DNA of 64,000 nt. Origin: an uncultured virus (IMG/VR IMGVR_UViG_3300012983_000043). Taxonomy: Duplodnaviria > Heunggongvirae > Uroviricota > Caudoviricetes. Positions 10,363 through 52,702 of this stretch are shown here, piece by piece (the stretch's first letter is position 1; each line of letters starts with the position of its first letter). The notes below the pieces were generated by a model. That model was given only the letters and a program-made list of their open reading frames with translations, ran no database searches and was not told the DNA's origin. Both the position numbers and the translations under genes were made by a program. The DNA is taken from the IMG/VR virus record IMGVR_UViG_3300012983_000043; one strand, 5' to 3'.

Positions 10363-10971
10363 TCATGGAATGAGCCGGTGGTTTTCATAGTCATATTTCC
10401 AGTGAAGTGGGCTGTTGAATGGTTCAGTCTTCTTTATTCTCATGTAAGCGTCTACTAGCATCTCACCTGAATCCCAGAAGTCAATGAATCCCTGCTTGTA
10501 CTTTGGATTGCATTTGACACATACAATGTGTCCACCTTCTTTGCAAGCTTCATTCTTTGCATTTGGATTTCCCTCGAGAGACACAAGAAATGTTCCCTAG
10601 TTTTCAAACATCTCTACAAACTCATTGAGAGTTATTCCTGCTGTAGCGCCAATTCCATTTTCATTGTCAAAGTCAATGAGCTCTTGCTCTGCATCTGTTC
10701 CTTTGAATTCATCTGGCACAAAGTCATAGTCTTCATAGAAGTCCTAGACAATGTCAAAATACTCATTGAACTTGCTCTTTATTTCATCTAATGAAGATCC
10801 AGTGTCACGAATCAAGCCGTGACCATTCTTCCATGAATAGCCAAATCTCTTGCAGACTTCTTGATACTTCAAGCCAGTGCCAGCTGACACTGCACGAATA
10901 GGACAATCTCCAATGAATTTTTTCCATGGATTAAAATTAGCATATATGAGTTTTGGATTCTTCATATACAT
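10363..10971 (-). CDS. putative papain-like Cys-His-Asp fold protein, TAG-recoded
   Basis: Two track ORFs joined through 2 TAG; GDCPIRAVS...GHIVCV...DFWDS; paralog of 51596-52249. Confidence 0.65.
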
Positions 10972-15316: not shown

Positions 15317-15762
15317 TGTGAATCATCAGCAATCAAAGTTATCAATGAATCAATGCATTTAGCAAATGCTTGAGCAACATCAATAGTCTGCTTTTGATTA
15401 ACTATATGTTCATCGGCAAACTTGTCTTTGATTAGTCTATAGACCATAGTCTTGTTGTCAAGTTCATAGTATTCAACAAGCCATTTCTGTAAATGCTTCT
15501 TCTTGTCAATGTTGTTCTTTATCACTGGATCTTTCAACTGGTTGATGAATGCTCGTAGTTCTTTTCTCCAGTGGTTGAAGTTGATGTTCTCTGGATCAAA
15601 CAACTGACACCATTTGCAAAGACACCAGTTCTCAACTAGCTCATGCATGCAAAAATCAATTTTCCTGATGTAGACTTTCAATGGCATAGCCATTTCATTC
15701 ATCATTTGCTTGATTTTCTTATGCTCTTCAAGCATTTTTTCAATGTCAATTGGCTTTTTCAT
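15313..15762 (-). CDS. hypothetical protein truncated by the IS; original 13-aa tail lies at 13864-13906
   Basis: Empty-site join reads IADDSQ-STMNYINAVFSCV*. Confidence 0.75.
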   Translation of the reverse strand: MKKPIDIEKMLEEHKKIKQMMNEMAMPLKVYIRKIDFCMHELVENWCLCKWCQLFDPENINFNHWRKELRAFINQLKDPVIKNNIDKKKHLQKWLVEYYELDNKTMVYRLIKDKFADEHIVNQKQTIDVAQAFAKCIDSLITLIADDSQ

Positions 15763-16736
15763 GATATTTCTTGACTAATTATATCAATTGTCTTTTTCTT
15801 GTTCACTCGAAACTACTTTAGGTAGTCTTTATTAAATTTTCTTTCAACATAATTTACAAAATATGAATAATCTTTATGTTTCATTATTACAACACTATTC
15901 TATATCATACATTGATGTTTTGCCGCATATTTTTTATTGATTTTAGCATATTGTTCATCTGTCCAAGTTTTCTTTCTAAATGGACAAAATAAAATGCCAT
16001 TCCTATTAAAGAACTAATCACCTTTGATTTCTATCAGCATATTAAATTCTTTTATGAGAAAATCAGCATGATAAACATATTTTTTCCCTTCAAACATGTA
16101 ATATAATGGAAAATCTGGCTAGTATTCAAATTCAAAGTTATTGTCTTTCAACCAGATGTATAATGCAATTTCAGGAGCAGAATCAAAATATTTGTTTTCA
16201 TACATATATTTTCTATGCATTTTCTAATGTGTGATTGATGTTCCACCACCATTTTTCACACCATATCTTTTAAGACATGTTTCATTATTCTATTCTCGAT
16301 TATTATAATTTTCATTGCCATATAGTCGTTTGTTAGTAGCTTTTATCTTGTCTCGAGTTATTTGGTCTTTGTTCACACATACTAGACAACAATGCTTATT
16401 GTATCCTCTAGTATATGATAAAACATTTTTATGTAAACCTATAGCATTATTGCATTCTTTTCTCTGGCATTTTGGAAAATCTATTAATCCATTTGCTATC
16501 CAATACAATCTTGTCGACATTTTCACATTAAAATCACAACTATTTAATATTGATGTTTTTGCATATATCCACGGAATCAATATAGATGTCATATAGACTT
16601 TATATTTATAGTCAACATTTATTGTATTTCTAGGTTTCTTTATTCCTCTAGACAAACTTAGAATTGTTTCTTTAATTCCATATTTTAGAAATGTTTTGCA
16701 TAGCAATTCATAATTATTATAGTCAATGTCAGTCAT
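15759..16736 (-). CDS. free-standing PD-(D/E)xK-type (homing-like) endonuclease, TAG-recoded
   Basis: 325 aa through 6 TAG; TNKRLYG/TCLKRYG repeats, FDSAPE...FEY(Q)P...ADF...IEIKG. Confidence 0.75.
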
Positions 16737-16940
16737 TAAAAGTTTGTTCTAAACAGGAACAAGCATGTAAGTTCTAATGTAATCATCATCTATCATTTAT
16801 AATTTCCTTGAATTTAAACTATAAAACTCTATCTAGGCTGCGAAAACTAGATAGAGCTAATTTTTAATAATTTGTTCTCATCTAAATTCGCAGCGATAGA
16901 ACAATTATATTTATATTATACACTCAAAAATGCAAGGCTG

Positions 16941-18431
16941 TTATGCAATGTCTCCATCGGTCTGCTTAAGACGAATCTTCTGCCCCCAGTCATTGAAGTC
17001 TTCAGTTCCATCTTTTGTTATAATCCAAAGGGTAGGCAAACCTGTAGGATTCTTTGGAATGTTGTCAATAAATCCGTCAGTTAACACTAAACATGCGTCA
17101 ACATCCATCTGTTCATCAATGATAGCATTTAGACCGGGAAGCATTGACGTCCCGCCACCGCCCGTCATAGCATATTCACCAGTCTCAATGATGCTTTCAA
17201 GATTATCATCTTGAGTGAAGTGCTTAATAGATCCAACTTCACAATCGCATTCAATCAAGTACAATGAGTACTGACCGAAGCTTTTGATCAGGCTATTGAG
17301 TTCTCCAAGAAAGATTCCACGGTCACCACAGGTAGAACCGCTCGTGTCGATAATGCATGCCAACTTGATTTTGCTAGACTGACGACTCTGTAGATATACA
17401 TCATTGTGCACATGCCTGCGATTTGGCGGAATCCAAGAGCGGTTGCCAGAGTTGTAAGCTCGAGTCACGAACTGTGCTAAGACTTCCTGCCAACGAATTT
17501 GTGGAGTCATTATTTTCTTCACAAGCTCCTTCACATGTGCTGGCACATTGCCCTTCATCTTCTCTACGCGTTGCGCTTCAGAGATGACCGTCTCACGCAT
17601 ACGATCCGCAAAACCTTTGGGTACGCTTGGCTGGAAATCAGAGTCAATTCCAACCTCACCATATTTGTCAGTGATCTTGGAAGTGTACTCACCATCTTTT
17701 CCATTAGAATTATTTCCATTTCCATTGGACTGGCCATCATTGGCGTTTTTGTTAGGCTGGTCACCTTCATAGATGTGCTTGTCAAACTGACCCTTGAGCT
17801 CACCATCAGGATTTCCACCAGAGTCAGACTCATCATTGTCATCATCATTTTCATTAGACTGGTTGGAAGAGCTTGACGAACCAGAGCTTTTCTGCTTCTT
17901 GTTGTTCTGCTTGCCGCTTGAAGAAGAGCTGGAAGATCCATTTCCACTACCATTAGCAGTCTGCTGCTTCTGCTTCTTCTGCTTCTTGAGAAGCATCTCA
18001 TAGATTTCTTCGGCACACTTGCCTACTTCATTGCCTTCAGGGAAGCAGAGATCAGCTGGAGGAACTAAGCCATCTTCCTTGAGCAGATAGTTGACTTCCT
18101 TGTCTGTAGCAATGTTGAACAATGCCGGATTGCGGTTGCCACGACGAGTGAGATGAAGCAGGACGGCGTGCCAGACCTCATGCGCAAGCACGAAGATGCG
18201 CTCTTCATTTGAGAGAGAAGAGAGGAATGCAATGTCAAAGTAGACACAGTTGCCGTCAGTGCAAGCTGTACGGACTCGAATGTCACGAACTGGCACAAGA
18301 TCCATGCGCAGCGCAATGGAACCGATGAATGGATACTTAGTGAGAAGCACATGCCGAGAGTGAGAAAGCACGTCAAGCGCCTTCTTCTTCAGGATTTTGA
18401 GCTCTTCTTCAGTGATTGTGTTAGCTTTCAT
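16941..18431 (-). CDS. DUF2201-type metallopeptidase plus VWA-like domain protein
   Basis: TACTDG, LAHEVWH (HExxH), low-complexity linker, IDTSGS, GGGGT, LTDG. Confidence 0.88.
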   Translation of the reverse strand: MKANTITEEELKILKKKALDVLSHSRHVLLTKYPFIGSIALRMDLVPVRDIRVRTACTDGNCVYFDIAFLSSLSNEERIFVLAHEVWHAVLLHLTRRGNRNPALFNIATDKEVNYLLKEDGLVPPADLCFPEGNEVGKCAEEIYEMLLKKQKKQKQQTANGSGNGSSSSSSSGKQNNKKQKSSGSSSSSNQSNENDDDNDESDSGGNPDGELKGQFDKHIYEGDQPNKNANDGQSNGNGNNSNGKDGEYTSKITDKYGEVGIDSDFQPSVPKGFADRMRETVISEAQRVEKMKGNVPAHVKELVKKIMTPQIRWQEVLAQFVTRAYNSGNRSWIPPNRRHVHNDVYLQSRQSSKIKLACIIDTSGSTCGDRGIFLGELNSLIKSFGQYSLYLIECDCEVGSIKHFTQDDNLESIIETGEYAMTGGGGTSMLPGLNAIIDEQMDVDACLVLTDGFIDNIPKNPTGLPTLWIITKDGTEDFNDWGQKIRLKQTDGDIA

Positions 18432-18796: not shown

Positions 18797-19942
18797 TCAG
18801 AAGTCAATCCGAGTGTGCTTGGTAGCAAGCTCCTTGTACTTGTCTAGTGTGGAGCGATACAATGGGTGGCGGTAGAGCTTCTTGGCAGAGACGCCGGAGA
18901 GCTCTTCTGAGCGGCCATACATAGCGCCATTGATGCACATCATGATGAACTCAGGACGCATCTTCTGGAGAATCTTGAAGAAGCCGTCCAGGCGCTTGTG
19001 CTCATCCTCTTCATCCTTGCCGCGCCACAGGACATACACAAGGCTGGAGCACATAGCGTAGAGCTGGTCATTCTTCTCAGGAATCTTGATGGGCGCCTTG
19101 CCATAGAGCATGTCGATGATGTTGTCGAAGTTCTTGTTGAGGCGGTGGAATTCAATGTACTCAACACCCTTAGCAGGACCCACAAGGCCATATACGATCT
19201 TCCGGAGAAGCTCTTCATTGTTGCCGTAGATTTTTGTCATCTGAGAGACACGGTCCCACGACCGAGGTGAGGGCCATCCACGCTCAAGGTTCTCCTTCTC
19301 CATGTTGAAGAGATTCATAGGCCGGTACTGGATGAAGCCGATAACCGAAGGGTGTACATCGTGAGTCATAGCCCACTTGCACCACTGTTGGTCATCAACG
19401 TCAAGTTCCACATGCATGAAGCGGTTCGAGAGGGCCGAGGACATGCTCATGGCAACGGCACGGTCAGTGGTGAGGTTGCCAGCAGAGACGATGTACCAGC
19501 CATCCGGCACCTTGTAGAAGTCACCAATCTTGCGGTCGAGGATGAGCTCATACGCAGCCACCTGGCAGGACTTGTCGCAAGAAGTGATCTCATCCAGGAA
19601 GATGATGCCCTTGGAGTTGGGGTCACGAGGCCAGAAGTCAGGGGCGTTCCACTTCATCACGCCCTTGTCCTTGTCAACCGAAGGAAGTCCACGGATGTCC
19701 ACCGACTCCATTTCTGCCAAGCGGACGTCTACGAAGCCAATGCCGAGTTTCTGAGCCACCTGCCGGACAATCGAGCTCTTGCCGACGCCAGGCGAAGAAT
19801 GGATGAGAATCGGAGGAATAGTTGCCGCCAAGCCCGGATTGTCAATGATGAGCTGGCAGTTGGTCTTAAGGATCTCCTCAAGCTCGGGGATAGACATGCG
19901 GTTGTGCGTGTCGATTGCGATGGAGTCATTTTTTGTAGCCAT
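18797..19942 (-). CDS. MoxR-like AAA+ ATPase
   Basis: Walker A SSPGVGKS, Walker B IIFLDE, SAGN, ALSNRF, PSPRSW. Confidence 0.9.
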   Translation of the reverse strand: MATKNDSIAIDTHNRMSIPELEEILKTNCQLIIDNPGLAATIPPILIHSSPGVGKSSIVRQVAQKLGIGFVDVRLAEMESVDIRGLPSVDKDKGVMKWNAPDFWPRDPNSKGIIFLDEITSCDKSCQVAAYELILDRKIGDFYKVPDGWYIVSAGNLTTDRAVAMSMSSALSNRFMHVELDVDDQQWCKWAMTHDVHPSVIGFIQYRPMNLFNMEKENLERGWPSPRSWDRVSQMTKIYGNNEELLRKIVYGLVGPAKGVEYIEFHRLNKNFDNIIDMLYGKAPIKIPEKNDQLYAMCSSLVYVLWRGKDEEDEHKRLDGFFKILQKMRPEFIMMCINGAMYGRSEELSGVSAKKLYRHPLYRSTLDKYKELATKHTRIDF

Positions 19943-27866: not shown

Positions 27867-28712
27867 ATGAATGCAAAATCACAAATTGAATTTTGGGCAA
27901 GAATGCTCAATGAGAGCTCTCATGAATCATACTACAAGATGTACATGGCTGAGCATCCTGAAGACAAGCCTTTGCCTTTGATGAAGTCATTAGCAGAAGA
28001 GTTTGCAGAAGACTTGAAGAAAGACAACATAGACTTGAATGACTGCTTGAATGCTAAAGGTCTAGCTGACATCGGTGTGCTAGAGAAGATGCAAGCTTCA
28101 ATCAAGCACAAATACAAATGGGAATTGATAGATGCACGGGTATATGCAGCTATCATAAGTCGCATGACAGCATTAATGCACAGAGCTAAAGGCTAGAAGT
28201 TCACAGAGTCTGACACAATAGAATATGGTGATGTTGTTCACAATGTCTCTAGACGAGTGATTGAAAAATGCCTTGACATAATATGCCACAACACAAATGT
28301 GCTTGATGCAAACAAAGCTCTGTCAATGAGATATGACGTGACAACTGGCCCAAGCAAAGAAGCAATAGAAGCTTTCAAGTCTGCAGGAATCCCTGCAATT
28401 CCAAACTATGTGCCCGGTGATGGAGTTGTGACTGACTACTTTCCAGCTGCTATGCTCTACAAAGCATGGGCATCTTATGCAAAGGGAACTGCAGGAGAGA
28501 AGTATGTATGTGACAGTGACAATGGTCCAGAAGCTTTGAGAAAAGTGCTAGACAATGTTGAATACTCAGCTGATGACATTGACTTAATTGTTGCTCTCAA
28601 CAAGTCACTTGACATTGTTCATTTCAGAAGTGACTTAGCTGCAGCATTCATTGAGGGCGGACAGAGCACATGCGCAATGGTCAGCAATCTGCCTGACAAA
28701 TTTGTTGTGTGA
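27867..28712 (+). CDS. hypothetical protein, TAG-recoded (joins two track ORFs)
   Basis: Same frame across TAG at 28194-28196. Confidence 0.7.
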
Positions 28713-29196
28713 ATGACTTCAGCACTTCATCAAGCCTGACAGGAAATCCATCATGCGCTTGAACACAAGAGCAGAAGTTTGAAGACTTGTCTAATGGACC
28801 GACAACATAGCCTCGATGCATGTGTCCATATATCTGGTTCATAGAGCAGTCTTTTGGCTTGTGCTGAATGACAACATTGAATTCTTCAAGAATCAATCTG
28901 TCTAATACGGCATCAAAGACTTCTCTATAGAAGTCATCAGACAGCTTGTCATGATTTCCCTTTATCAGCATAATTCGACCATTCAGTCTTGACTTGAAGT
29001 TCAAGACACTTTTCTCATCGCCGTCACAGAAATCTCCATTGTACAAGACTATGTCATCTGAATTGACAGTTGAATTCCACTTCTCTATCAGCTTCTCTTC
29101 TTGCTCAGGCGTGAACACATGCAGAAATGGAAGCTTTATCGAGTCAAAATGATGGTCACTTGTGACAAATGTCTTCAATGGATCAATCTTCATCAT
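28681..29196 (-). CDS. calcineurin-like metallophosphoesterase
   Basis: SDHHF, NGDF, KGNHD, YGHMH. Confidence 0.85.
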   Translation of the reverse strand: MMKIDPLKTFVTSDHHFDSIKLPFLHVFTPEQEEKLIEKWNSTVNSDDIVLYNGDFCDGDEKSVLNFKSRLNGRIMLIKGNHDKLSDDFYREVFDAVLDRLILEEFNVVIQHKPKDCSMNQIYGHMHRGYVVGPLDKSSNFCSCVQAHDGFPVRLDEVLKSFTQQICQADC

Positions 29197-29578
29197 TAGT
29201 CTCAACTTGCTGTGGTTCTTCAACTATCTTGATTTTCAAGCCAGGAAATTCAGCAAGAAGATTTCCCATTGCTTCTCTCTTTGTGCTAGCTAGAACATAT
29301 GCCTCAGCATATGGATTCTTCGGATCAAGAAGCTTGCCATCTGGCCATTGAGCAGTGTAGCATATCTTGTACTGGTTCACCATTCGTCTTTTGTCCTTCT
29401 GTTTAGTTCTCGACGTGTATTTGCTTTGTCTTTCTTAGAGAATACTGTCCGAGTGCCAGTGTTCATCTTAATGACAATTCTTGGAATATAGGGTGTCTTC
29501 TTTTTCTTAGAGTTCTTCTTTTTCACAGTTGTCTCCTTTGGTTGATGTGACAACTATATCATAAACTGCAAGCAATGT

Positions 29579-33124: not shown

Positions 33125-33427
33125 TTATAGCATCATGTCAACTGCAATGAGAATCTCTTCAAGTGACTTCTTCTCAGGTGCATAGCCGATGAACTTGTTG
33201 TCTTTGAAGACGCGTCCATGAATTCCATTCTTCTCAATGTCTTCTAAGATTGTCCTAAGTCCGCCTTCATGACCAATCATGTAGTAGAGATGCTTGTTGT
33301 CTTCGAAGTCAATTTCAACACTGAATTCATCAACAAACACTTCCACACCATAGCTTTCACATATCTTCTCAAGCTTAGTAAGAGATGATGGCTTTCGCTT
33401 GTGCTTTGTCTTTTTGTTTGATGGCAT
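33125..33427 (-). CDS. hypothetical protein with C-terminal tag
   Basis: KSLEEILIAVDMML. Confidence 0.7.
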   Translation of the reverse strand: MPSNKKTKHKRKPSSLTKLEKICESYGVEVFVDEFSVEIDFEDNKHLYYMIGHEGGLRTILEDIEKNGIHGRVFKDNKFIGYAPEKKSLEEILIAVDMML

Positions 33428-33441
33428 ATCATTCTTCTAAA

Positions 33442-33516
33442 TGGCTGAGGATGAACGAGTCGAACGTTCACTCTCGGTATCAAAAACCGATTTGCTCACC
33501 GCTACAACAATCCTCA
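33442..33516 (-). tRNA. tRNA-Gln(UUG)
   Basis: TGAGGAT/ATCCTCA acceptor, TCGGT-TTTTGAT-ACCGA, TTCGA, CCA. Confidence 0.9.
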
Positions 33517-33523
33517 AGTAAAA

Positions 33524-33598
33524 TGGTACGCCCAACGCTGCTCGAACTTGTAACTCCAATGTTAAAGTATCATTGCTCTACCAACTGAGTTAGGGCAT
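33524..33598 (-). pseudogene. degenerate tRNA pseudogene
   Basis: CTCAGTTGGTAGAGC D-arm, GTTCGA and ACCA present; anticodon and T stems do not pair canonically. Confidence 0.6.
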
Positions 33599-33651
33599 TT
33601 AAACATTCTGTATTTAAATTATATCAATTAACATTGTATTTTTATACTCAA

Positions 33652-34542
33652 TTAACCGCGTTTTTTGCCACGTGATGATTTATATTCAGGCAAATAGCAT
33701 TTACATAATCCAACAAAATTTGCCTATGAATATTGATAATCAAAATGTTCTTTAAATTTCTACCATCCATGATTGACATAATATTCATACATAGGTCTTA
33801 ATTCAGCAATTCGTTTTGGTTTGATTTCATTTTCACGTTTTTTCATGTAAAAATGCTTAAGCATCATCTTTCCATGTTCATTTAGTGGTTTTCCACGTTT
33901 TTCAAAACTAAATGGAATTGGATCATCTTTATTGATATATTTGACTTCATTAGTATTTGGATTAAATATTTTGCATTTATTTTTAGTGCTTTGTGAAAAT
34001 TCTTTCAATTGAGATATTACTTTATCAGTTATAGTCTAATACATTCCATATTCCCAACCATCAGGAAGCATTTCTGATTTAAGAATGACTTTTGATTCTT
34101 TCGTTGTTGGATTGCGAATCCAACAACGCTTCTTCATTGGATTATTTTCTCCTTTATTTGCTTCACTTGCAATTTTTGAAGCAAGCTTTCCAAATTCTTC
34201 TCTAGCCTATTGATAGTCTTCAGACATCAAAATGAAATCTCTCAATTCTTTTCGACTTCCATTTACAGTTCCTTTGTGCATGTTCATCAATGCACAAAGC
34301 ATCTAATCATGAAATTCATCATCATGATGAATGATCCAAAGATACACATGAGCCATAAAATGCTCTTTTGCAAGAAGAGCTATTTTATTCTCTTCAACAT
34401 CTAAACCATTCATTGAAGTTGGAATGATATGATGTATCTCTATTCTTCCTGGATGTTCTTTTGACTTAATCAAGACATTCTATTTTCTATATGCAACTAA
34501 GTCATTATAAGCTTTCTAAGCTTCTTCTTTTGTCATTGTCAT
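33652..34542 (-). CDS. HNH homing-type endonuclease, TAG-recoded
   Basis: EIHHIIPTSMNG.D...N...L.AKEHFMAH; multiple in-frame TAG; GTAAATA at 34580-34586. Confidence 0.8.
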
Positions 34543-34647
34543 TTTCTTTTTACCTTTTCTGTCATTGCTGTGACATTTTTATTTACTTTTTTATATAAAA
34601 TAATATACCCAAATCTGTTGGCAGCAACCATGAGTTTGGGTATAAAA

Positions 34648-34797
34648 TGGTCACAGTGATGAGAGTTGAACTCACTTAACCCTGATTATGGAGCTGGGTG
34701 AGGATTCCGAGACCTCATATTCCGTCTTACAAGGACGGCTCTTAACCGTTCAGACAACCCAGCAAAGTCAGGTGCATATCCGTTTTGCTACACTGTG
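34648..34797 (-). tRNA. tRNA-Lys(UUU), split in the anticodon by a nested tRNA-Thr (halves 34764-34797 and 34648-34688)
   Basis: CACAGTG...CCTGA-CTTT | TAA-TCAGG...CACTGTG-A-CCA. Confidence 0.88.
34689..34763 (-). tRNA. tRNA-Thr(UGU) nested inside tRNA-Lys
   Basis: GCTGGGT/ACCCAGC-T-CCA; CCGTC-CTTGTAA-GACGG. Confidence 0.88.
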
Positions 34798-34806
34798 CAA
34801 TAAATT

Positions 34807-34897
34807 TGGTCGCCAGAACGAGAGTTGCACTCGTACACAGTTTTTAACCTGCACTGGATTTTGAGTCCAGCTCGTCTGCTTATTCCGACATCTGGCG
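34807..34897 (-). tRNA. tRNA-Leu(CAA)
   Basis: CTGGA-CTCAAAA-TCCAG, long variable arm, ACCA. Confidence 0.9.
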
Positions 34898-34921
34898 AAA
34901 TCATCTTTATTCTATCAAAAA

Positions 34922-35443
34922 TCAATCTTCTTTAAACAACTTCTTGTCAGCATTCAACTTCTTTGCTGCATCCATGAATTCATTCAACCTGTCTTTCACT
35001 TCAAGAAGACTTCTTTTCAAATCATAGTTCTCTTCTTCTACCTCTAGAATCCGTCTTGACATATCCGACACCAGCTTATGCTGTGCATCATCACTGACAG
35101 AGACATTTGCAATCAAGTCTCTGATGCAAGAGGGCTCTTGCTCAAGCTCTGCAACATATCCCTCTGTCTCTAGTCTGATGAGAAGCTCATGAATGTCTTT
35201 AGCATTGAAATCATGTATCAATTCAGTGTGGTCTTCAAGTATGATGCTCTTCCGCTGTTTAATGTCAAGACTGTTGAGTTTTGCAATTCTTGTGTATCTT
35301 CTGGTATGCAAGAAGATGCGTCCAATGTTCATGTCATCATAGAACACAACATGACCTAAGTTCTTCATGTCATCAAGCTTGGCAATTGCCAAATCAGACC
35401 AGTCATCATCAACTAAAAGGACATATTTTGTCTTTTCACTCAT
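34922..35443 (-). CDS. hypothetical protein, internal tag plus coiled coil
   Basis: KDIHELLIRLE; layout like 24927-25352. Confidence 0.7.
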   Translation of the reverse strand: MSEKTKYVLLVDDDWSDLAIAKLDDMKNLGHVVFYDDMNIGRIFLHTRRYTRIAKLNSLDIKQRKSIILEDHTELIHDFNAKDIHELLIRLETEGYVAELEQEPSCIRDLIANVSVSDDAQHKLVSDMSRRILEVEEENYDLKRSLLEVKDRLNEFMDAAKKLNADKKLFKED

Positions 35444-35988
35444 CAGTGAACTCCAGCTTTCAAGTCTGCCCAGACTATCAGTTCGTCAATTGATGAGACA
35501 TCAGGCGTCTTGTATTCAGAATATTTTTTAATTTCATGCAGTGGTCTATTGATCAATCTATCTGCTACAGCGTCAAACAGAACATTGAATCTCATTGTTG
35601 CAGCTGTGCCGTAATTGCACTTTATTGCGTCTGACACAGCTCGATTGATTCTGCTGAACACAACATTCACTAGCTTTCTTTCATCAAGATGGAATTCACT
35701 GACTAGCTCTTCAAGAGAGACAATCTGCTCTCTAAGCATGATGCGTGGATTTGCCTTTTTGAAGAGAGAATCTACTTTGCCAAATGATCCAATGTCATCA
35801 CTCCATCGATTGTATGACAAGCGGTAGTAGTTGTTGCTAGTGTCTTTCACTCTGAAGAAGAATCTGTTCTTGAGGCTGGTTGCATTCACATAGAAGACTG
35901 GCTTGCCAGCTGGCACAACGGCCGCTGCAAATGCATAGATGAATTGCTTCATCTCTTCAAAAGAATGTCTTTTGCTAGTTGTCTTCAT
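35443..35988 (-). CDS. hypothetical protein with C-terminal tag
   Basis: SSIDELIVWADLKAGVH; start approximate. Confidence 0.7.
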   Translation of the reverse strand: MKTTSKRHSFEEMKQFIYAFAAAVVPAGKPVFYVNATSLKNRFFFRVKDTSNNYYRLSYNRWSDDIGSFGKVDSLFKKANPRIMLREQIVSLEELVSEFHLDERKLVNVVFSRINRAVSDAIKCNYGTAATMRFNVLFDAVADRLINRPLHEIKKYSEYKTPDVSSIDELIVWADLKAGVH

Positions 35989-36139
35989 GTGTCTGATCTC
36001 AAAAAACTTGCATGCACCTATCACCGCATGCATTCATGCTGGAGACATATTGTCCAAGCATAGAATGAATGCATGCTCTTGTATGTTAGTTGTTGTGTCA
36101 CTGGAGTTGACGAAGCGTCCACGCTTTTGCATGCAATGC

Positions 36140-36286
36140 TGGCATCCCTGAGAGGACTCGGACCTCCAACCACAAGCTTATGATGCCAAGCGCAAGACTC
36201 GAACTTGCATTTTCCTAATATGCTAGGATGTCTTGCATTAGACGAACTTGACGAAGGCTCGTGCTCTTCCATTGAGCTACAGGGAC
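36140..36286 (-). tRNA. tRNA-Arg(UCU), split in the anticodon (halves 36253-36286 and 36140-36180)
   Basis: GTCCCTG-TA-GCTC..GAGC-A-CGAGC-CTTC | TAA-GCTTG...CAGGGAT-G-CCA. Confidence 0.88.
36181..36252 (-). ncRNA. 72-nt tRNA-like insert without a canonical anticodon loop
   Basis: GTCAAGT/GCTTGGC acceptor, GTCT/AGAC D-stem, TCCTAG-CATA-TTAGGA, GCAAG-TTCGAGT-CTTGC, ends A-TCA. Confidence 0.85.
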
Positions 36287-36294
36287 TTCAAACA

Positions 36295-36763
36295 TCACTT
36301 GTTCTTGCCGCGGCCCTTCTCCTTGCGCCGCTTGATCTCCTTGTGCACGCCCGGAGCAGTTCCCTTTGCCCACTCTTCAAGCACAGCATTTGACACGCAC
36401 CTGACAACGGGCTTGATCTTTGTCAAGAAGTAGTATTGCTTGCTTGAACGGTTCTTCACTGGCGGGACATGTGTTCCTGGAATCTGAATCATCTTTTGTT
36501 CTCCAATTTATTTTGTTTCAATTATATCAAATTCTTCTCAAGTCTTTCACTCAAGCATTGTAGATCTGGCCCTTCCAGCGATATACATTCTGGCGCTCAA
36601 TCTTGCCAGTCCTCTTGTTCTTGTATGTCTTTGATGACTGCCCATATGCAATCTCTACACCAGTTGCTCCAGCAGGAATCAATGTCTTAGATGTCTCTGC
36701 ATCCCAGACAGGATATTTAGTCGGCTTGCCAAGCGGCTTGAAGTCATATTCATTCATAGTAGT
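36295..36763 (-). CDS. two small hypothetical genes (36295-36492, about 36551-36757)
   Basis: Track ORFs, RBS, promoter element between them. Confidence 0.55.
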
Positions 36764-36937
36764 TTCCTTTTCACTTTCCATAGATTCCAAAGATCAAGAT
36801 GACAATGAATGCAATGATGCCAAGCACACAACCGCATCCGGCTCGAATTGCATCATCACGAGCAAACTCTTCTTTTTCTTGTTGGTTGTCATTCATGGTT
36901 GAATTATATCATATTGCATATGATTCTTTAACTCAAT

Positions 36938-37012
36938 TGGTGCCTCTGCTAGGAATTGAACCTAGCTTACATGGATGAAAACCATGTGTACTAACCGCTA
37001 TACGACAGAGGC
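36938..37012 (-). tRNA. tRNA-Glu(UUC)
   Basis: CATGG-TTTTCAT-CCATG; GCCTCTG/CAGAGGC-A-CCA. Confidence 0.92.
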
Positions 37013-37066
37013 AATTTAATTGATTGTCTTGATTTCAGACAAAATAGCAGTCATATTTGCATAGCA

Positions 37067-37504
37067 TCAAGCATCATATACAGGACCGCCTTGTTCAGAG
37101 CCGCCGCCATTGACAAGAATTGTTTCATCTTGTCTTCCATCACTGATCCTGTCAAGCGCATTCTTCAATATAGTGTCAAATGCATCACCGCTTAATGCAG
37201 ATGAAAGTGCATCAGGCAATTCATTAGTAAGCACTTGCTCTGCTATTCTTGCAACTTCTTCTTCAAGAGCTTCCGTCAATGCATCTTGCACAGCTTGTCC
37301 GACAATAGACGATATCTGTGGCGTGAGCTCATTCTTCACTTTTGCTTTTATGTAGTTAGAGTAAGTTCCGACCTGAAGCTTCTTTGACTCAAATGGATAT
37401 TTTCCACCTGTGTGGTCTGACACAAGAAGCAGGTCATTGTTGTCAATGCTCGACTATGCCATCTCTGGCAGCTGTGATATCTTGAAAGACTTAGTTGTTG
37501 CCAT
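37067..37504 (-). CDS. hypothetical late-type protein, TAG-recoded
   Basis: MATTKSFKISQLPEMA(Q)SSIDNNDLLLVSD continues into the track ORF. Confidence 0.65.
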
Positions 37505-37751
37505 TTTCATTTGCCTCATTGCATTCTTCTTTTGTCAGCCTGAACTTCTCTAATTCATCTAGAAAGAACTTATCACCGAATTCATTTATCAACCAGCAAT
37601 ACTCATCATAGTCGGGTGACTCTTCTGGTATGCCTCCGCCAATGACATAAGGCGCAAACTTTCTTGCAATTGCTTGTGCTCTCATCAGACGAGCATATGC
37701 AGCTTGCCGCTGCTAGTTGATCTTCCACCAATATATCTAAGTAGCTGTCAT
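37491..37751 (-). CDS. hypothetical protein, TAG-recoded
   Basis: MTAT(Q)IYWWKIN(Q)QRQAAYARLMRAQ...; GTAAATA at 37757-37763. Confidence 0.65.
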
Positions 37752-37770
37752 GATTTTATTTACTTCAAGT

Positions 37771-37864
37771 TGGTGACAGGGGATGGATTCGAACCACCGA
37801 TGTTTACCACTTAGGTACGAGTTTTACAGACTCGCGTCTTCGGCCAGCTAGACAAAACCCTGCC
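37771..37864 (-). tRNA. tRNA-Tyr(GUA)
   Basis: CGAGT-CTGTAAA-ACTCG, long variable arm, GTTCGAAT, ACCA. Confidence 0.9.
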
Positions 37865-37876
37865 AATAAACTCAAA

Positions 37877-37952
37877 TGGTAGGCGATGAGTGAGTCGAAC
37901 ACTCCTAAGCTCCTTATAAGAGAGCAGTAATCAACCGATATACGAATCGCCC
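37877..37952 (-). tRNA. tRNA-Ile(UAU)
   Basis: GCTCT-CTTATAA-GGAGC; GTTCGACT; ACCA. Confidence 0.88.
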
Positions 37953-38137
37953 ATAAATCGCGGAGGGTTTTTTGTTGAGCCATCACATAAATGTGCTTGC
38001 GGCGTTATATTCAACATAATGAGCTTAACATCACGTCTAATGAAACTCCAACCCACAACTTCTTGCAAGTGACTGCTGTGTCTCAAGCAGCTTTCATTGA
38101 CATATTATCAAATTTCATTTGACTTTAAACTAAATTC

Positions 38138-38211
38138 TGGAGCGCCGTGCGGATCCCGAGACCGCATATCCAGCTTGGAAGGCTGGCATTCTGCCTTTGA
38201 ATTAACAGCGC
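38138..38211 (-). tRNA. tRNA-Gly(UCC)
   Basis: CCAGC-CTTCCAA-GCTGG; GCG start, T-CCA end. Confidence 0.9.
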
Positions 38212-38225
38212 ATACATTAAAAAGA

Positions 38226-38490
38226 ATGCTCACATATCTGACTGGAACTTGCAACAAATGAGGTACCTAAGTCAGCAAGCCTTCGGCGCTATTCACCAAA
38301 CTGTTCAGTATTCCATTATTGATGCTTTAATAGACACATCTTTCAATTTTCAGGTATGCACCTTCGCAATCAGCATGACTCTCAGTTGTCTGCTCACCTT
38401 AGATATGGGGCATTTGACTCCCCAATGAGGTGTAAGGCTGCCGTTGAAGCATTAAGCATACGAGGTCTGACTCCCTCTCTACATGAGCAT
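38226..38490 (-). ncRNA. candidate ~265-nt structured RNA
   Basis: ORF-free; closed by ATGCTCATGTA/TATGTGAGCAT helix; internal GGG/CCC and CTGACT/AGTCAG complements. Confidence 0.45.
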
Positions 38491-38539
38491 AATAAAACTA
38501 ATTTTTGTAATAAGATTTAAACTTACAATCTTATTATAC

Positions 38540-39349
38540 TTAAGAACAATTTCTAAAAATATTTTCAAGCTATTTAACTACATTGTTTTTAGGACGAATT
38601 CTTATAGTCATATAGCCATTCTTCAATGCAATTTCATCTTTTTGCTTATCTGCTATATTTCCTTCAGGATGCCAAAATTCTCCATCAATTTCAATAAATA
38701 GCTTTTTTAAAGGAATATAAAAATCTACAAAACGTTTTATATTTTCAAAACAAAATTCTTTTTGGTGTTCAAAAATAATATTATGCTTTGATAACCAATC
38801 AAATGCAACTTGTTCAGGATAAGTCATCTATTTTCTATTTCCTGCTAATTTACGATTAGGATGTTTTTCAGGATGTTCTGTATAAAACTTCTTCTTTTTT
38901 TCTGACTAAGCTTTACGTTTTTCATCTGTCCAATATAATGAAGAACATCTATTTATTATAGATCCATTTGCTATACCTTCTTTCATAGCAATTGAAACTG
39001 CTTTAGAATTACGTTTTACACGTTCATCGGTTTCTTTTGTAAGACCTTTATTCCAAGCATATATTCTTCCATCTTCTCCAATTTTAACATGATTATTATG
39101 AATATGTTTTTGTAATTCATTTTTTGTTTTACAAATCTTATTACAATGTTTACATTTCCATGTTCCAAATGGAGCAGTCTGTTTAGAATGATCCTATTTT
39201 ATTCCACGTCTCTTTAAACCAAGAGCAATATAATCAATGGATAATGATGCCATTGCACTAGCACAGGATTTTGAACAAAATCTTCCAGAACCATAAGATC
39301 CATCATGTTCTTTTTTACATTTTGGATTTTCACAAATATATTTTTTCAT
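38540..39349 (-). CDS. Vsr/DUF559-like (EDxHD-type) endonuclease with zinc-finger N-terminus, TAG-recoded
   Basis: CENPKC..HDGSYGSGRFCSKSC; TYPE...FVDFY...IEIDGEFWH...KD; GTAAATA at 39355-39361. Confidence 0.8.
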
Positions 39350-39389
39350 AAAAATATTTACTCAAGCGCATTACTAAACTCATCTAAAT

Positions 39390-39465
39390 TGGTCGGAGCG
39401 CCAGGTGCTGCCCCTGGACCTTCGGTTCCCAAAACCGGCGTGCAAAGCTGTTATACCACGCTCCG
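39390..39465 (-). tRNA. tRNA-Pro(UGG)
   Basis: CCGGT-TTTGGGA-ACCGA; CGGAGCG/CGCTCCG-A-CCA; atypical GGCAGCA T-loop. Confidence 0.88.
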
Positions 39466-39472
39466 AAATCAA

Positions 39473-39620
39473 TGGTGGACCTGATCGGTGCTGCCCCGAT
39501 TCAATGATGCTTGAGGAGCTGAGACTAAGACTCGAACTTAGATCTTCCTAAGTTGCTAGGATGTCTTGCATTAGACGACCTCAACCAAAGCACCCGTGTT
39601 TGCTGATTCACTACAGGCCC
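39473..39620 (-). tRNA. tRNA-Ala(UGC), split in the anticodon (halves 39586-39620 and 39473-39513)
   Basis: GGGCCTG/CAGGTCC-A-CCA with G3:U70; GGTGC-TTTG | CAA-GCATC. Confidence 0.88.
39514..39585 (-). ncRNA. 72-nt tRNA-like insert, homolog of 36181-36252
   Basis: GTTGAGG/TCTCAGC acceptor; shares CGTCTAATGCAAGACATCCTAGCA..TTAGGAA and AAGTTCGAGTCTT; ends T-CCT. Confidence 0.85.
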
Positions 39621-39630
39621 AAATAAAATT

Positions 39631-39785
39631 CTCATGTGGGTGGACTCGAACCACCAAGCTTTCGCGGCAGATTATGGACGATCTATCTGGAGTTGCACCA
39701 GAATCGCAGCCATTCTCATGATTGCATTCTACTATTTAACTATAGACCGACAGTCTGCTGAGGCTACCGATTTCTCCACACATGA
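39631..39785 (-). tRNA. tRNA-Asn(GUU), split in the anticodon (halves 39750-39785 and 39631-39674)
   Basis: TCATGTG/CACATGA-G; GCAGA-CTGT | TAA-TCTGC; GGTGG-TTCGAGT-CCACC; CCA not encoded. Confidence 0.85.
39675..39749 (-). ncRNA. 75-nt tRNA-like insert
   Basis: CGGTCTA/TAGATCG-T-CCA; TCTGG-TGCAACT-CCAGA; extended irregular anticodon arm. Confidence 0.8.
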
Positions 39786-39795
39786 ATAAATTGTT

Positions 39796-39919
39796 TGGTC
39801 CGGCAAGGAGACCACTACTTCTCCAATGCTAAGCTTTCACATATGATCATGCACTTAGCGCCCACCTCAATGCGGGTGTGTCTATGGCGAGACTCTACGT
39901 CTCTTTGCACCATTGCCGA
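39796..39919 (-). ncRNA. 124-nt enlarged tRNA-like RNA
   Basis: TCGGCAA/TTGCCGG-A-CCA; GGAGA/TCTCC; extra GAGAC/GTCTC hairpin; CCCGC-ATTGAG-GTGGG; long GCTAAG/CTTAGC arm. Confidence 0.65.
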
Positions 39920-39923
39920 AATT

Positions 39924-40085
39924 TAGCGGGTGTGGGAAATGCTCCCAACGTGGATGTTATCCGGGAGGTTTGGACAATCGGTCAAGACTCGAACTTGAAT
40001 TGCTTTCTACTTAATTCAAAAGTGTTTTACATCTTAAACTACCGGTTGATGGGCCTCCTGACTTTGACTTCTAGTCTAACCCGCA
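39924..40085 (-). tRNA. initiator-like tRNA-Met(CAU), split in the anticodon loop (halves 40049-40085 and 39924-39970)
   Basis: GCGGGT/ACCCGC with 1:72 mismatch; GGAGG-CCCAT | AA-CCTCC. Confidence 0.82.
39971..40048 (-). ncRNA. 78-nt tRNA-like insert
   Basis: CAACCGG/CCGATTG-T-CCA; GTTT/AAAC D-stem; TCAAG-TTCGAGT-CTTGA; irregular anticodon arm. Confidence 0.8.
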
Positions 40086-40329
40086 ATTAAATTCTCTATT
40101 CAGAAGCTCACAACTTCTGACAAACCAACTTCAATTTTCAAAGAACAATTATATTATACATCAATGCCAAAGCATTATATACTTTTATTTCATCTTAGGG
40201 CACTTGTAGTTTGCATGATTGTCAACTGCAGGACACAGAGCATTGTCTTTGCATGCTTCACATGTCTGCTTGCTTGGCTTCACTGCAGGTTTGTCTTTGA
40301 GAATTTTCTTGTTCATATTGTCAATTCAT

Positions 40330-40755
40330 TCAAGTCTTCAAATCAGCTTTGACTTTCAATTCTTCAAGATTGTTGATTATGTATTTTTTGCCAGCAACTT
40401 CTATCATCAAACCCTCATCATCAGCGTCAAACCCATGCAGCACAGCTTTCATCGCCTGATATTTGACATCATCAGGATCACATCTCATATGATATGCAAA
40501 ACTGTCAATGCTGATCACATAATTGATGCTCCATTCAAGTTGGCTGTCATAGTCTTTCCAGATTTTAGAGTCATACAATTCAATGTATGCTTCGCCTGGC
40601 AAAGAATACAGAATATGTTCTTCATCTTCATCATTGTCGGTGTCATCATTGCTTGCATGCAAAACACTGTTATGGTCTATGAACAATGAATCAATGCCCA
40701 GCAATGCACATAGTCCATCATACAATTTAGATGCATTTTTTCTTGTCAGCTTCAT
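40330..40755 (-). CDS. hypothetical protein with C-terminal tag
   Basis: NNLEELKVKADLKT; paralog of 41939-42373. Confidence 0.75.
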   Translation of the reverse strand: MKLTRKNASKLYDGLCALLGIDSLFIDHNSVLHASNDDTDNDEDEEHILYSLPGEAYIELYDSKIWKDYDSQLEWSINYVISIDSFAYHMRCDPDDVKYQAMKAVLHGFDADDEGLMIEVAGKKYIINNLEELKVKADLKT

Positions 40756-40961
40756 TTGATTCTCTATTCAATTCATTAAAATGCCAAGGGCTTCTAGAAG
40801 TTGATCATTCTTCTAGAAGCCCACCTCTCCCGATGAGAGGCACACCATGCTTGCAAGCCATGGTGCATTTATGCGTTCTGTTCGCTTGCGCTAGCAAGGT
40901 GCATTGCTCCTGCCGGACATCCATCCGGCGTGCCCACAACTGCAACCGGCGTGGACGGATA

Positions 40962-41874
40962 TCAGAAAGTCAAGTCAACATCAATTGTCCGCCAGAACTC
41001 AAGGTCATCCATGAGCTTCGGAAGTGTCTTGAAAGACGGCCTAATCGGCTTTCCATCTTCTTCGATATAGAGAGTGTCGCCCTTCTTGTATAGCTTGCTT
41101 GCACGCTTCACAAGAGGCTTAGTCAGCTGATGGACAACTCGCAGTGCCTTCTTGACATCTTTGAACATCTTCTTCAGCTCAGCATGCTGCTGGACAAACT
41201 CTTTCTTAGTGATGGGCTTCTTCATTATGATCTCCTTTGTTAGTTTGTTTGTTGATTGATTTGATGGTTCAATCATATCAAGACTTGAATGCTGTTTTCA
41301 CTCAAACATTCAATTTTGAAATTTTGATGCTGTTGATGAAATTACAGCACGCATCAATGAACTTGACTACATCAGATTCTGAGATGCATTGCGCATGAAG
41401 TTGCGCATTGAGCTCTTCAAGTCGAGCTTTGAGATTTTGGTTCTCTTCTACAAGCGCGTCATATACAGCAAGATTGCTAGAGTGCATTTGCTTGTAGTGT
41501 TCAAAAAGCTCCTTGAGCTTTGCGTTCTCTACTTCAAGCTTGTCAATGTATGCTCTAACTTCAGGTGTGATTCCAAAGTCTGCATCAGTCCATTCATCTG
41601 CCTTTGGAGCTTTGCTCTCATTCTCAAGCTTTGCAATAGCGTCTTTCAGATACTGCTTGCCTGCATCAAGAATGAACCAGCTGTCCTTGAACTTCTTGAT
41701 GTATCCAGCATTGTGAAGCTGATAGAGAGCATTGCTGATAGACTTCTTGTCCTTGAATGCTTTATTCTTGATCAAGACATCTTTGTCTCCTTCACACAAT
41801 GCATCCTGGTATTTGCTGCATGTAGTCATCCAGAGAAGGATGATCTGAGGCTTTGTGAGTTGTTTAAGCTTCAT
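40962..41874 (-). CDS. two hypothetical genes (40962-about 41225; 41302-41874, wHTH-like plus coiled coil)
   Basis: RBS AAAGGAGA; SISNALYQLHNAGYIKK..WFILDAG. Confidence 0.65.
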
Positions 41875-44161: not shown

Positions 44162-44797
44162 TCACATAAACTTGTCTTCGCCGAAGAATTCAAGTTTTCC
44201 GTGTTCATTCTTCTTGCATCTGTAGAGCTGGCCTGGAATCTTCTTGAAGAGCTTATTGAGATATGCAATCAATTCATCATCTGAGACAATCTTCCAGTTC
44301 CACACCATGCATCCCATGTTCACATTCAAAATCCTGTGGTCAAGGTCAAGACAGTGCTTCCAGCTGTTATGGACATGCCCGCATAAGTGAATGGGCGCTG
44401 TCATGCATGATGCATCGCACCGGCGGTCATATGTAGGGTAGTGTGACAAAGACACAGACGGATATCTCTTGCTCAAGAATATGTGCATAGAGTCACACAC
44501 TGACTTGACTTTGTTGTTCAAGTCATGATTGCCTCTGATGTTGATGAATGTCGCAGAAATGTCTTTTATCAGCTCATAGGGCTTGACATCTAGGCCTTTA
44601 GAGTCTAGATGCGCATCTTGCTTGAAGCACGCAAGGTCGCCCAAATGGTAGATTATGTCTTCAGGCTTAGCGCGTTGCTTGCATGACCTGAGCAGCGCAG
44701 CATCATGTTTCTCAATAGACTTAAATGGCCATGAGTCTAGCTTAAGCAGAGACTCAAAACCAAAATGAAAATCGGATGAGAAGTATTTATGTGCCAT
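44162..44797 (-). CDS. calcineurin-like metallophosphoesterase
   Basis: SDFHFG, LGD, RGNHD, SHYP, CGHVH. Confidence 0.88.
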   Translation of the reverse strand: MAHKYFSSDFHFGFESLLKLDSWPFKSIEKHDAALLRSCKQRAKPEDIIYHLGDLACFKQDAHLDSKGLDVKPYELIKDISATFINIRGNHDLNNKVKSVCDSMHIFLSKRYPSVSLSHYPTYDRRCDASCMTAPIHLCGHVHNSWKHCLDLDHRILNVNMGCMVWNWKIVSDDELIAYLNKLFKKIPGQLYRCKKNEHGKLEFFGEDKFM

Positions 44798-52306: not shown

Positions 52307-52702
52307 TCACTCAACAATGATCTCGCCTGGATAGTCTTCCATAGACTTCTTGAAGTTGTCAACAAGACTGTCGCTCAATCCATGCACATTCTTGAAATTG
52401 CCTGTGCATCTGTAGACATCAAAGCTTGCACCGATCTCATCAGCGATCTTCTTGTATGCATCTACAAAGGCTCGTTTTGTGAATGTATTGGCCACAACAA
52501 CATCAAAGTGATTCTCTAAAGCCGTTCTAGCCATATTCATGCACCATTCTATAGCAGCTGGCATATTCTCTTTATGCCAGTCATAGACTCCATTGTGCAT
52601 ATGATACTGATCATTCTCAAGTAAAAGCGTATTTGGAAACATACGCTTAGCAGCAGAGCTCTTGCCACTGCCCGGTGCACCTCTGTATAAGATCAATTTC
52701 AT
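52307..52702 (-). CDS. AAA_33/PNK-like P-loop kinase
   Basis: LYRGAPGSGKS, VVVANTF, NVHG. Confidence 0.8.
   Translation of the reverse strand: MKLILYRGAPGSGKSSAAKRMFPNTLLLENDQYHMHNGVYDWHKENMPAAIEWCMNMARTALENHFDVVVANTFTKRAFVDAYKKIADEIGASFDVYRCTGNFKNVHGLSDSLVDNFKKSMEDYPGEIIVE

Follow-up and report, generated by a model that had tools for sequence, protein, structure and literature searches.

Cloverleaf-like RNAs that do not decode are known to recruit both RNase P and RNase Z, as with the plant mitochondrial t-elements and the ends of MALAT1 (mascRNA) and MEN-beta, their shape directing cleavage of the longer RNA at fixed sites, and phage T4 is known to counter the break made by the host anticodon nuclease PrrC with the enzymes Pnkp and Rnl1. 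A full-text literature search for an arrangement like the one described below returned a single relevant precedent, the report on the Lak megaphages (Devoto et al. 2019, PMC6784885). In the available text of that report, Lak transfer RNA (tRNA) genes hold "enigmatic introns", one of which "itself may encode a tRNA"; these introns are present or absent among cohorts, nearly invariant where present, and 23-141 nucleotides (nt) long, with lengths of 76 and 79 nt among them (PMC6784885). The same text gives a T4 Rnl2 annotation for the phage Lak A1 (Table S7, PMC6784885) and, as far as it goes, proposes no splicing mechanism for the introns. Here we describe the IMG/VR virus record IMGVR_UViG_3300012983_000043, from an uncultured member of the Caudoviricetes, over the whole 64,000-nt stretch that was analysed (the window). 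In it a 72-nt anticodon-less tRNA-like element, which we call the mimic, lies in the anticodon loops of a tRNA-Arg gene (copy A) and a tRNA-Ala gene (copy B). We propose, with some reserve, that the mimic is a mobile tRNA-shaped mini-intron, part of a set of five tRNA-inside-tRNA genes (units A to E, Table 1), which would be excised by tRNA end processing and sealed by an Rnl1-type ligase; this reading may well hold, though we would not yet call it probable.

The first-pass annotation of the window, made from the letters alone, had claimed that one and the same anticodon-less mimic occupies both tRNAs. This claim is upheld: the two copies lie on the minus strand, align without gaps and agree in 56 of 72 columns, with unbroken identity over columns 8-32 (a 25-nt invariant block). 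A 24-mer core occurs exactly twice in the window (36221-36244 and 39554-39577), with no match in 100 shuffles, while a 13-mer from the T-arm core occurs exactly three times, in copies A and B and at 39984-39996, inside the insert of unit D. The compensatory nature of the acceptor- and T-stem differences, for which the annotation had quoted the stem sequences correctly, is likewise seen. All 21 pairs of the named cloverleaf form in both copies and none is broken; five pairs are changed on both sides (three in the acceptor stem, two in the T stem) and none on one side only, so that all ten stem differences are compensatory. As a control, shifting the 3' partner by 1-3 columns leaves only 26-48% of the positions paired. 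The six remaining differences fall in the hairpin loop (two), the variable region (one) and the tail (three). In copy A the cloverleaf is the minimum-energy fold (-21.1 kcal/mol, z -2.82) and matches the Rfam tRNA model RF00005 at 34.6 bits, against a gathering score of 29; copy B is absent from the Rfam tRNA lists even at E up to 10.

Neither copy has the attributes of a decoding tRNA, namely a 7-nt loop with U33 and an anticodon, G18 and G19, and a CCA end, and ARAGORN called neither. The anticodon loop had been described as collapsed to about 4 nt; no usable anticodon loop is indeed present, but the arm standing in place of the anticodon arm carries a 6-nt loop, GCAUAU in A and GCAACU in B, which is reduced to 4 nt only if a G.U pair closes it. 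The last four bases are AUCA in A and UCCU in B, in agreement with the proposed drift of CCA to UCA and CCU. On the other hand, the geometry of an RNase P and RNase Z substrate is preserved, with a 7-base-pair (bp) acceptor stem on a 5-bp T stem and a 7-nt T-loop, whose sequence, UUCGAGU, is common to the inserts of units A, B and D.

Excision of the mimic by script yields recognizable tRNAs in both cases. With insert A removed ARAGORN reports a clean 75-nt tRNA-Arg(tct) with CCA, and with insert B removed the RNA folds as a cloverleaf with the loop UUUGCAA, the end ACCA and, by eye, a G3:U70 pair. The spliced Ala tRNA was not called by ARAGORN, probably owing to its T-loop, GGCAGCA. Since removal of 72 nt restores both the Arg(tct) and the Ala(UGC) cloverleaf, both inserts lie between positions 35 and 36, and the identical insertion point postulated earlier is thereby confirmed. 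The minimum-energy fold of the whole 147-nt unit A is an outer cloverleaf with an inner cloverleaf in place of its anticodon loop.

The mimic does not stand alone. Its two copies are one form of a five-unit layout, of which another form encloses a good tRNA-Thr(UGU). The three further units were found by running ARAGORN with introns allowed and splicing by script; all are on the minus strand and all lie within about 6 kb. In each of the five the insert consists of a cloverleaf, a discriminator base and three further bases, exactly, and removal of this "cloverleaf plus 4 nt" leaves a canonical 7-nt loop (pyrimidine-U-NNN-A-A) in all four units interrupted at 35/36. After splicing, ARAGORN calls the Lys(ttt), Arg(tct) and Asn(gtt) tRNAs, i.e. 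three of the five units, Ala(UGC) being recognized from its fold and by eye. The tRNA-like character of the inserts is apparent from Rfam tRNA matches (A, C and E), ARAGORN calls (D and E) and their cloverleaf folds. The core that is invariant between the two mimics is not common to inserts C, D and E.

Table 1. Nested tRNA units, mimic copies with their flanking exons, and RNA-repair genes of the window (positions counted from its first letter)
Feature	Position	Strand	Description
Unit A	36140-36286	minus	tRNA-Arg(UCU) with 72-nt mimic, tail UCA (36181-36252); site 35/36
Unit B	39473-39620	minus	tRNA-Ala(UGC) with 72-nt mimic, tail CCU (39514-39585); site 35/36
Unit C	39630-39786	minus	tRNA-Asn(GUU) with 75-nt tRNA-like insert ending UCCA (39675-39749), Rfam tRNA 32.2 bits; site 35/36
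Unit D	39923-40084	minus	tRNA-like RNA, loop CCCAU/AA, with 78-nt element ending UCCA (39971-40048); site 36/37
Unit E	34648-34797	minus	tRNA-Lys(UUU) with complete tRNA-Thr(UGU) including CCA (34689-34763), Rfam 40.6 bits; site 35/36
Insert A	36181-36252	minus	72-nt anticodon-less tRNA-like cloverleaf in tRNA-Arg; 68-nt body, discriminator A, tail UCA
Insert B	39514-39585	minus	second 72-nt mimic copy, in tRNA-Ala; discriminator U, tail CCU
Outer tRNA-Arg(UCU), 5' exon	36253-36286	minus	positions 1-35; loop part CUUC
Outer tRNA-Arg(UCU), 3' exon	36140-36180	minus	begins U36 A37 A38; ends GCCA
Outer tRNA-Ala(UGC), 5' exon	39586-39620	minus	loop part UUUG
Outer tRNA-Ala(UGC), 3' exon	39473-39513	minus	begins C36 A37 A38; ends ACCA
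T4 Rnl1-type RNA ligase, 389 amino acids	23761-24930	minus	phrog_562 E 9e-52, profile positions 28-366 of 377; PF09511 63.6 bits
P-loop kinase-like protein, 131 amino acids, possible polynucleotide kinase	52307-52702	minus	PF13671 AAA_33 E 3e-10
Calcineurin-like metallophosphoesterase, possible RNA 3'-end healing enzyme	28681-29223	minus	PF00149; phrog_547 E 2.3e-28
Second calcineurin-like metallophosphoesterase	44162-44797	minus	phrog_547 E 2.5e-27; PF12850

The outer genes of the four units at 35/36 look functional to judge from their sequences: each is an intact cloverleaf whose acceptor stem is complete, CCA is retained in three of them, and no uninterrupted tRNA gene recognized in the window repeats one of their anticodons. 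The codons they read are common ones, AGA making up 32% of Arg codons and GCA 41% of Ala codons. The inner tRNA-Thr(UGU) of unit E is itself the only Thr tRNA found in the window, where ACA accounts for 43% of Thr codons, and its release at its mature ends would necessarily cut the outer tRNA-Lys between positions 35 and 36. These observations bear on an alternative in which no splicing occurs at all. A tRNA-like DNA element would then insert in anticodon loops, in a manner that may be likened to integrases inserting at tRNA anticodon loops, the outer genes would be dead or dying, and the inner RNA would be the sole product, if any. We consider this unlikely, in view of the perfect outer cloverleaves, their preserved acceptor stems and CCA ends, and the lack of an uninterrupted twin for any of the four in the window. 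Moreover, the inner and outer identities differ (Thr in Lys, a mimic in Arg, a mimic in Ala, a tRNA-like insert in Asn) and two of the inserts cannot decode, which means that they are not replacements; by eye there is also no stalk, no repeat flanking the insert beyond its own acceptor stem, and no target-site duplication. A replacement tRNA cassette as such was rejected on the differing identities and the missing flanking repeat. What the alternative does accommodate is the outer gene of unit D, which is not a normal tRNA, and some of the variation among relatives.

Unit D is also where the earlier proposal that the element has spread between tRNA genes finds a further instance. Its insert is 68% identical to copy A, other tRNAs of the window reaching at most 61%, and a covariance model built from A and B gives it 39.5 bits (E 1e-7), as compared with 100.3 bits for copy B and 28.4 bits for the best ordinary tRNA. 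ARAGORN labels the insert "tRNA-Stop(tta)", although its base 33 is A and its anticodon stem is weak. It thus appears to be a distant relative of the two mimics and the third member of their family; the model detected no further mimic copy in the window.

Variation at the locus was followed through contigs of relatives from four runs, compared with the window at 80% likeness. Sequence related to positions 33300-40300 was recognized in 20 DNA runs, which are animal (mostly ruminant) gut metagenomes or unlabelled and contain 15-26% of the sampled words of this region; none of the 24 runs listed for the region is an RNA run. In three of the four runs (X1, X3 and X6) a contig connects position 39954/5 with 40049 or 40059 through 14-28 other letters, which on the minus strand are a diverged 3' half of the outer anticodon arm of unit D. 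The break falls exactly at the ends of insert D, and hence these relatives hold the outer gene without the 78-nt insert; in X6 this gene has a different but still paired (compensatory) anticodon stem and the canonical loop CUCAUAA. The exact absence of the third insert from related rumen-phage contigs implies that the element comes and goes, as spread between tRNA genes would have it. The other units were encountered as follows: B and C are each spanned by contigs of X1 and X3 (two of the four runs), E by one X3 contig, the only one seen to span it, and A by one X1 contig, whereas X3 and X6 have 101 other letters in place of the whole of unit A (36137-36294). Among the 40 listed of 693 single-letter differences from relatives, none falls in the mimics. 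Taken together the inserts appear to be gained or lost precisely, the nested units being otherwise kept in diverged relatives. The presence or absence of an insert among relatives, and the replacement of the whole of unit A in two of the four runs, agree with insertion without splicing; the retention of units B, C and E in diverged relatives does not. That units B, C and E are spanned by contigs of other runs also led us to reject an assembly artefact.

Other established intron types were considered and discarded. The inserts are 72-78 nt long, group I introns usually exceeding 200 nt and having a conserved catalytic core (P3-P8), and three Rfam searches, including one at E up to 10, gave no group I or group II intron match. 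For units A, B, C and E inspection by eye showed that the anticodon stem of the outer tRNA meets the acceptor stem of the inner one in a 4 x 7-nt internal loop, with 4 nt unpaired on the 5' side, 7 on the 3' side and no central helix. This is not the bulge-helix-bulge of archaeal-type introns, in which a 4-bp helix separates two 3-nt bulges. Guide-like pairing of the mimic loops with the exon ends was looked for by eye and none was seen.

An enzyme suited to joining the outer halves is encoded in the window, as a full-length homologue of T4 Rnl1 (Table 1) that also matches the T4 Rnl1 structures 2c5u and 5tt6 (E about 1e-11). The kinase-like protein matches phrog_505, "polynucleotide kinase" (E 3.6e-11), and phrog_2071, "ATPase" (E 6e-22), and gave no sequence match in PDB. 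The ends produced by RNase P and RNase Z, 3'-OH and 5'-phosphate, are the very ones that Rnl1 joins, and the natural role of T4 Rnl1, an ATP-dependent enzyme, is to seal breaks in anticodon loops; where CCA is encoded, some RNase Z/BN enzymes cleave behind it. On the mini-intron reading the whole unit would be transcribed as a double cloverleaf, RNase P would cut at base 1 of the inner cloverleaf and leave a 3'-OH on outer base 35, and an RNase Z/BN-like endonuclease would cut after the tail and leave a 5'-phosphate on outer base 36. The outer halves would remain paired, and the phage Rnl1-type ligase would seal the nick to give a working tRNA. In unit E, where the insert is a real tRNA (Thr-UGU), one gene would thus deliver two tRNAs. 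The mimic would be a former tRNA that has lost decoding and kept the features needed for excision, along with the invariant D-arm and hairpin core. Spread could proceed by the reverse chemistry: the ligase would insert a mature tRNA where an anticodon loop has been nicked, and the joined RNA would be copied back into DNA; such an origin at the RNA level would explain why the inserts end exactly at mature tRNA ends.

The distribution of changes within the mimic complicates this scheme. The D arm and the anticodon-like arm (nine pairs plus loops) show no difference between A and B, whereas 5 of the 12 pairs of the acceptor and T stems have changed; were change even, the chance that none of the nine pairs had changed would be roughly (7/12)^9, about 0.01. 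This disparity points to sequence-specific constraint, a sequence-specific reader, or gene conversion in that part. The suggestion that selection acts on shape rather than decoding therefore survives in the compensatory stem changes, but as a matter of "shape only" it is too simple. The inserts could instead be true introns cut by a dedicated endonuclease that reads the core or the junction, leaving 2',3'-cyclic phosphate and 5'-OH ends that are healed before Rnl1 acts. In that scheme the kinase-like protein and a metallophosphoesterase might do the healing, on the logic of fungal and plant Trl1 or of T4 Pnkp and Rnl1 repair. All three heal-and-seal activities do have candidates in the window (Rnl1, the phrog_505 match and two metallophosphoesterases), the contrast of the 25-nt invariant block with the 5 of 12 pairs that have changed elsewhere suggests a factor that recognizes sequence, and the tails of A and B that are not CCA would pose no problem. 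Yet no candidate endonuclease was recognized among 58 open reading frames (ORFs) compared with Pfam or 38 compared with PHROGs, the core is missing from inserts C, D and E, although these occupy comparable sites, and the tRNA shape and CCA-like tail of every insert would be left unexplained; we judge this course of events improbable.

The perfect conservation of the D arm and hairpin would also fit a third possibility, that the mimic itself is the point and the outer tRNA mainly a scaffold. It might serve as a decoy for host defence nucleases that cut tRNAs or as a licensing device that makes the tRNA supply dependent on phage enzymes, and RNA-repair enzymes like those that serve against anticodon nucleases are indeed encoded by the phage. 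However, neither a partner nor a target was identified, the core is not found in inserts C, D and E, and neither role would by itself explain boundaries that coincide exactly with tRNA ends. We think it very unlikely that either role is the main explanation, and both are compatible with an intron rather than opposed to it.

Several observations weigh against the mini-intron reading. The covariation comes from two sequences only, and shuffled controls attain the same value 15 times in 500; the one matching contig recovered from metagenomes, L001, is 100% identical to the window, and hence it is not independent and adds nothing to the covariation. The cloverleaf of copy B lies 0.8 kcal/mol above the minimum (-17.3 versus -18.1), with a z of only -1.46, and the D-loop of the mimic, AAUGCA, is devoid of GG, so that its elbow may not be tRNA-like. 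The invariant core, as read from the two copies, favours a dedicated factor and weakens "shape only". With tails of UCA and CCU in place of CCA the 3' cut cannot depend on CCA, and a cut just behind the discriminator, as RNase Z typically makes, would leave the outer loop three bases too long. Unit D is interrupted at 36/37 instead of 35/36, in an outer gene unlike a normal tRNA: the anticodon reads CAU, the acceptor stem has 6 bp, the D hairpin is tiny, the variable region forms an additional hairpin, the T-loop has 5 nt, CCA is missing, and ARAGORN made no call. As for the enzymes, large phages commonly encode Rnl1 together with a kinase to counter host anticodon nucleases, so that finding Rnl1 here is not specific. 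In five further IMG/VR contigs that have candidate nested or intron-bearing tRNAs, most of these contigs being fragments, PF09511 was found in none, PF09414 in one and RtcB in none. Finally, no reverse transcriptase was seen in Pfam and PHROG scans of the window, which makes an origin by retro-copying speculative.

Searches beyond the window recovered few relatives of the element. The exact 24-mer and a pattern combining the D arm with the T-loop each had no match in IMG/VR, and a 21-base core pattern had none in 185,579 species genomes and a single one, on the contig L001 mentioned above, in JGI metagenomes. The covariance-model search that had been suggested found the third member within the window, but when the A and B model was run on 100 of 126 IMG/VR loci it gave only matches at the level of ordinary tRNAs (at most 33 bits). 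A blastn comparison of positions 33300-41200 with 50,697 phage records gave no match, and in IMG/VR neither the ORF at 35443-36033 nor the RNA ligase had a protein relative.

The 126 loci were obtained by scanning IMG/VR for pairs of T-loops separated by 20-40 nt, of which there are at least that many. In 52 of the 126 listed, ARAGORN placed a normal tRNA over the first T-loop, and splicing gave a clean outer tRNA only in L035; the remaining ones of these 52 look like partial tRNA copies following a tRNA rather than nesting. With introns allowed ARAGORN made 17 calls on the survey loci, of which five are plausible by eye (L035, L070, L011, L026 and L009) and the others weak. The locus L035, also found as L128 9806-9958, lies in a 27-kb IMG/VR contig with a cluster of 12 tRNAs. 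In it a clean tRNA-Arg(tct) encloses a whole tRNA-Phe(gaa) followed by CCC; the junction is 34/35 (33/34 if the anticodon is read CCU), not 35/36. A second comparable case, L129 (G002:C1:126000-145000), belongs to a 235-kb phage-like contig with tRNAs that carry 78-84-nt introns at L129 positions 8018-8174, 9665-9817, 10799-10953 and 16313-16465. These introns comprise a small hairpin (a stem and an AGUAAA-like loop) and an acceptor/T-arm minihelix abutting the 3' exon, and inside the same tRNA cluster, at L129 12749-13234, there is a PF09414 RNA ligase (95.7 bits). RNA ligases are thus also met with in other intron-bearing phages, namely this one (PF09414) and, by the available annotation, Lak A1 (T4 Rnl2, PMC6784885). 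Judging from these sequences, short tRNA-like introns recur in large phages, and the form in the window appears to be the most compact and densely repeated among those seen.

The units sit in a minus-strand tRNA cluster that runs from about 33.4 to 40.1 kb of a phage-like window whose genes are mostly on the minus strand and whose G+C content is 40.4%. PHROG matches in it include an ATPase, a helicase, a methyltransferase and the RNA ligase. ARAGORN reports nine tRNAs in the window and Rfam adds a few weak tRNA matches. Unusual elbows are a feature of several tRNAs of this phage, two of which were missed by ARAGORN: the T-loop GGCAGCA along with a D-loop devoid of GG is shared by neighbours, the outer Ala (39473-39513) and a tRNA-Pro-like gene (39390-39465), and an odd T-loop, UCUCGGRAU, is common to the tRNA-Thr of insert E and a tRNA-Gly (38138-38211). 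A tRNA-like remnant on the minus strand (33583-33660), called by neither ARAGORN nor Rfam, stands beside a homing-endonuclease ORF; its D arm is good, its "anticodon" loop measures 9 nt and its T arm is broken. A related X3 contig has 126 letters in place of 33450-34645, the endonuclease gene included. Two minus-strand stretches inside the cluster, 38212-38540 (about 330 nt) and 39800-39925 (about 125 nt), are non-coding with normal G+C and no Rfam match. Relatives vary by large replacements at these stretches, with 520 nt in place of 38320-39473 in X1 and 156 additional letters directly after the tRNA-Gly in X2.

Elsewhere in the window the homing-endonuclease and TnpB-like ORFs have open frames only when TAG counts as a sense codon. 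There are 3-7 in-frame TAGs per ORF at 4984-6165 (minus), 14012-15292 (plus), 15759-16796 (minus), 33652-34542 (minus) and 38540-39349 (minus), which are AT-rich TnpB-like transposase and homing-endonuclease genes, most other ORFs having none or one. No tRNA with a CUA anticodon was found in the window. The pile-up would reflect either recoding for some genes only or selfish genes from a recoded source. Two adjacent minus-strand genes encode a DUF2201 metallopeptidase/VWA-like protein (16941-18431) and a MoxR-like AAA ATPase (18797-19942), with PHROG E-values of 1e-83 and 7e-87.

Thus the first-pass annotation is right in outline and too narrow. To go by sequence comparison, the element is apparently a further form of a rarely reported and unexplained phage tRNA intron, one with a fixed anticodon position and a plausible ligase encoded by the same phage. 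The five units, the strict rule of a cloverleaf plus a 4-nt tail, the degenerate family in three genes, the exact absence of an insert and the Rnl1 homologue together make a testable model. It is doubtful, in our estimate, that the whole amounts to a new pathway for bacteria and phages, in which a tRNA-shaped intron would be removed by end processing, joined by a repair ligase and spread by the reverse reaction with copying into DNA. Should the mini-intron model hold, a third route would join the two known for tRNA splicing, self-splicing introns and the endonuclease pathway, and it would show how tRNA repair enzymes could both create and maintain introns; with spread by the reverse reaction included, these enzymes would be splicing machinery and mobility engine at once. 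Independently of mechanism, all five outer tRNAs were missed by default ARAGORN and by Rfam, which implies that phage tRNA sets, and arguments from codon supply, are undercounted.

Among known systems, the introns of archaea and eukaryotes likewise lie in anticodon loops, depend on proteins, are not self-splicing and are joined by a ligase (endonuclease with RtcB or Trl1), but they occupy 37/38 with a bulge-helix-bulge, whereas here the site is 35/36, the intron is a whole cloverleaf and there is no bulge-helix-bulge. T4 repair shares with our proposal an Rnl1-type ligase acting on an anticodon-loop break, and the window has both a full-length Rnl1 homologue and a kinase-like protein; the T4 break, however, is host damage at 33/34 of tRNA-Lys and not the programmed excision of an insert proposed here. 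The t-elements and mascRNA belong to eukaryotes and organelles, where they lie at the termini of mRNAs or long non-coding RNAs and re-ligation does not follow; they are not found inside a tRNA, whereas the mimic is; the mascRNA-type model RF01684 gave only a 23-bit match, to tRNA-Glu and not to the mimic. The likeness is closest to Lak: those phages are stop-codon-recoded gut phages, their introns also lie in the anticodon loops of tRNA genes, and the sizes overlap. As in that case, removal restores a normal tRNA, the intron is tRNA-like, and presence and absence are seen among relatives. In the available text of the report (PMC6784885) the Lak genomes are of about 26% G+C and more than 540 kb with 1-4 introns each, while here there are five units in 6 kb at 40% G+C. 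In the one Lak intron printed there, from tRNA-Tyr, additional 5' sequence precedes the tRNA-like part; the present inserts, by contrast, are exactly a cloverleaf plus a 4-nt tail. That text describes neither an anticodon-less family across several tRNAs nor an insertion rule, and both are present here. In the literature found, tRNA-like introns of phage tRNAs appear a single time, for the Lak megaphages, where they are left "enigmatic", and the present window offers the clearest anatomy of them that we have found.

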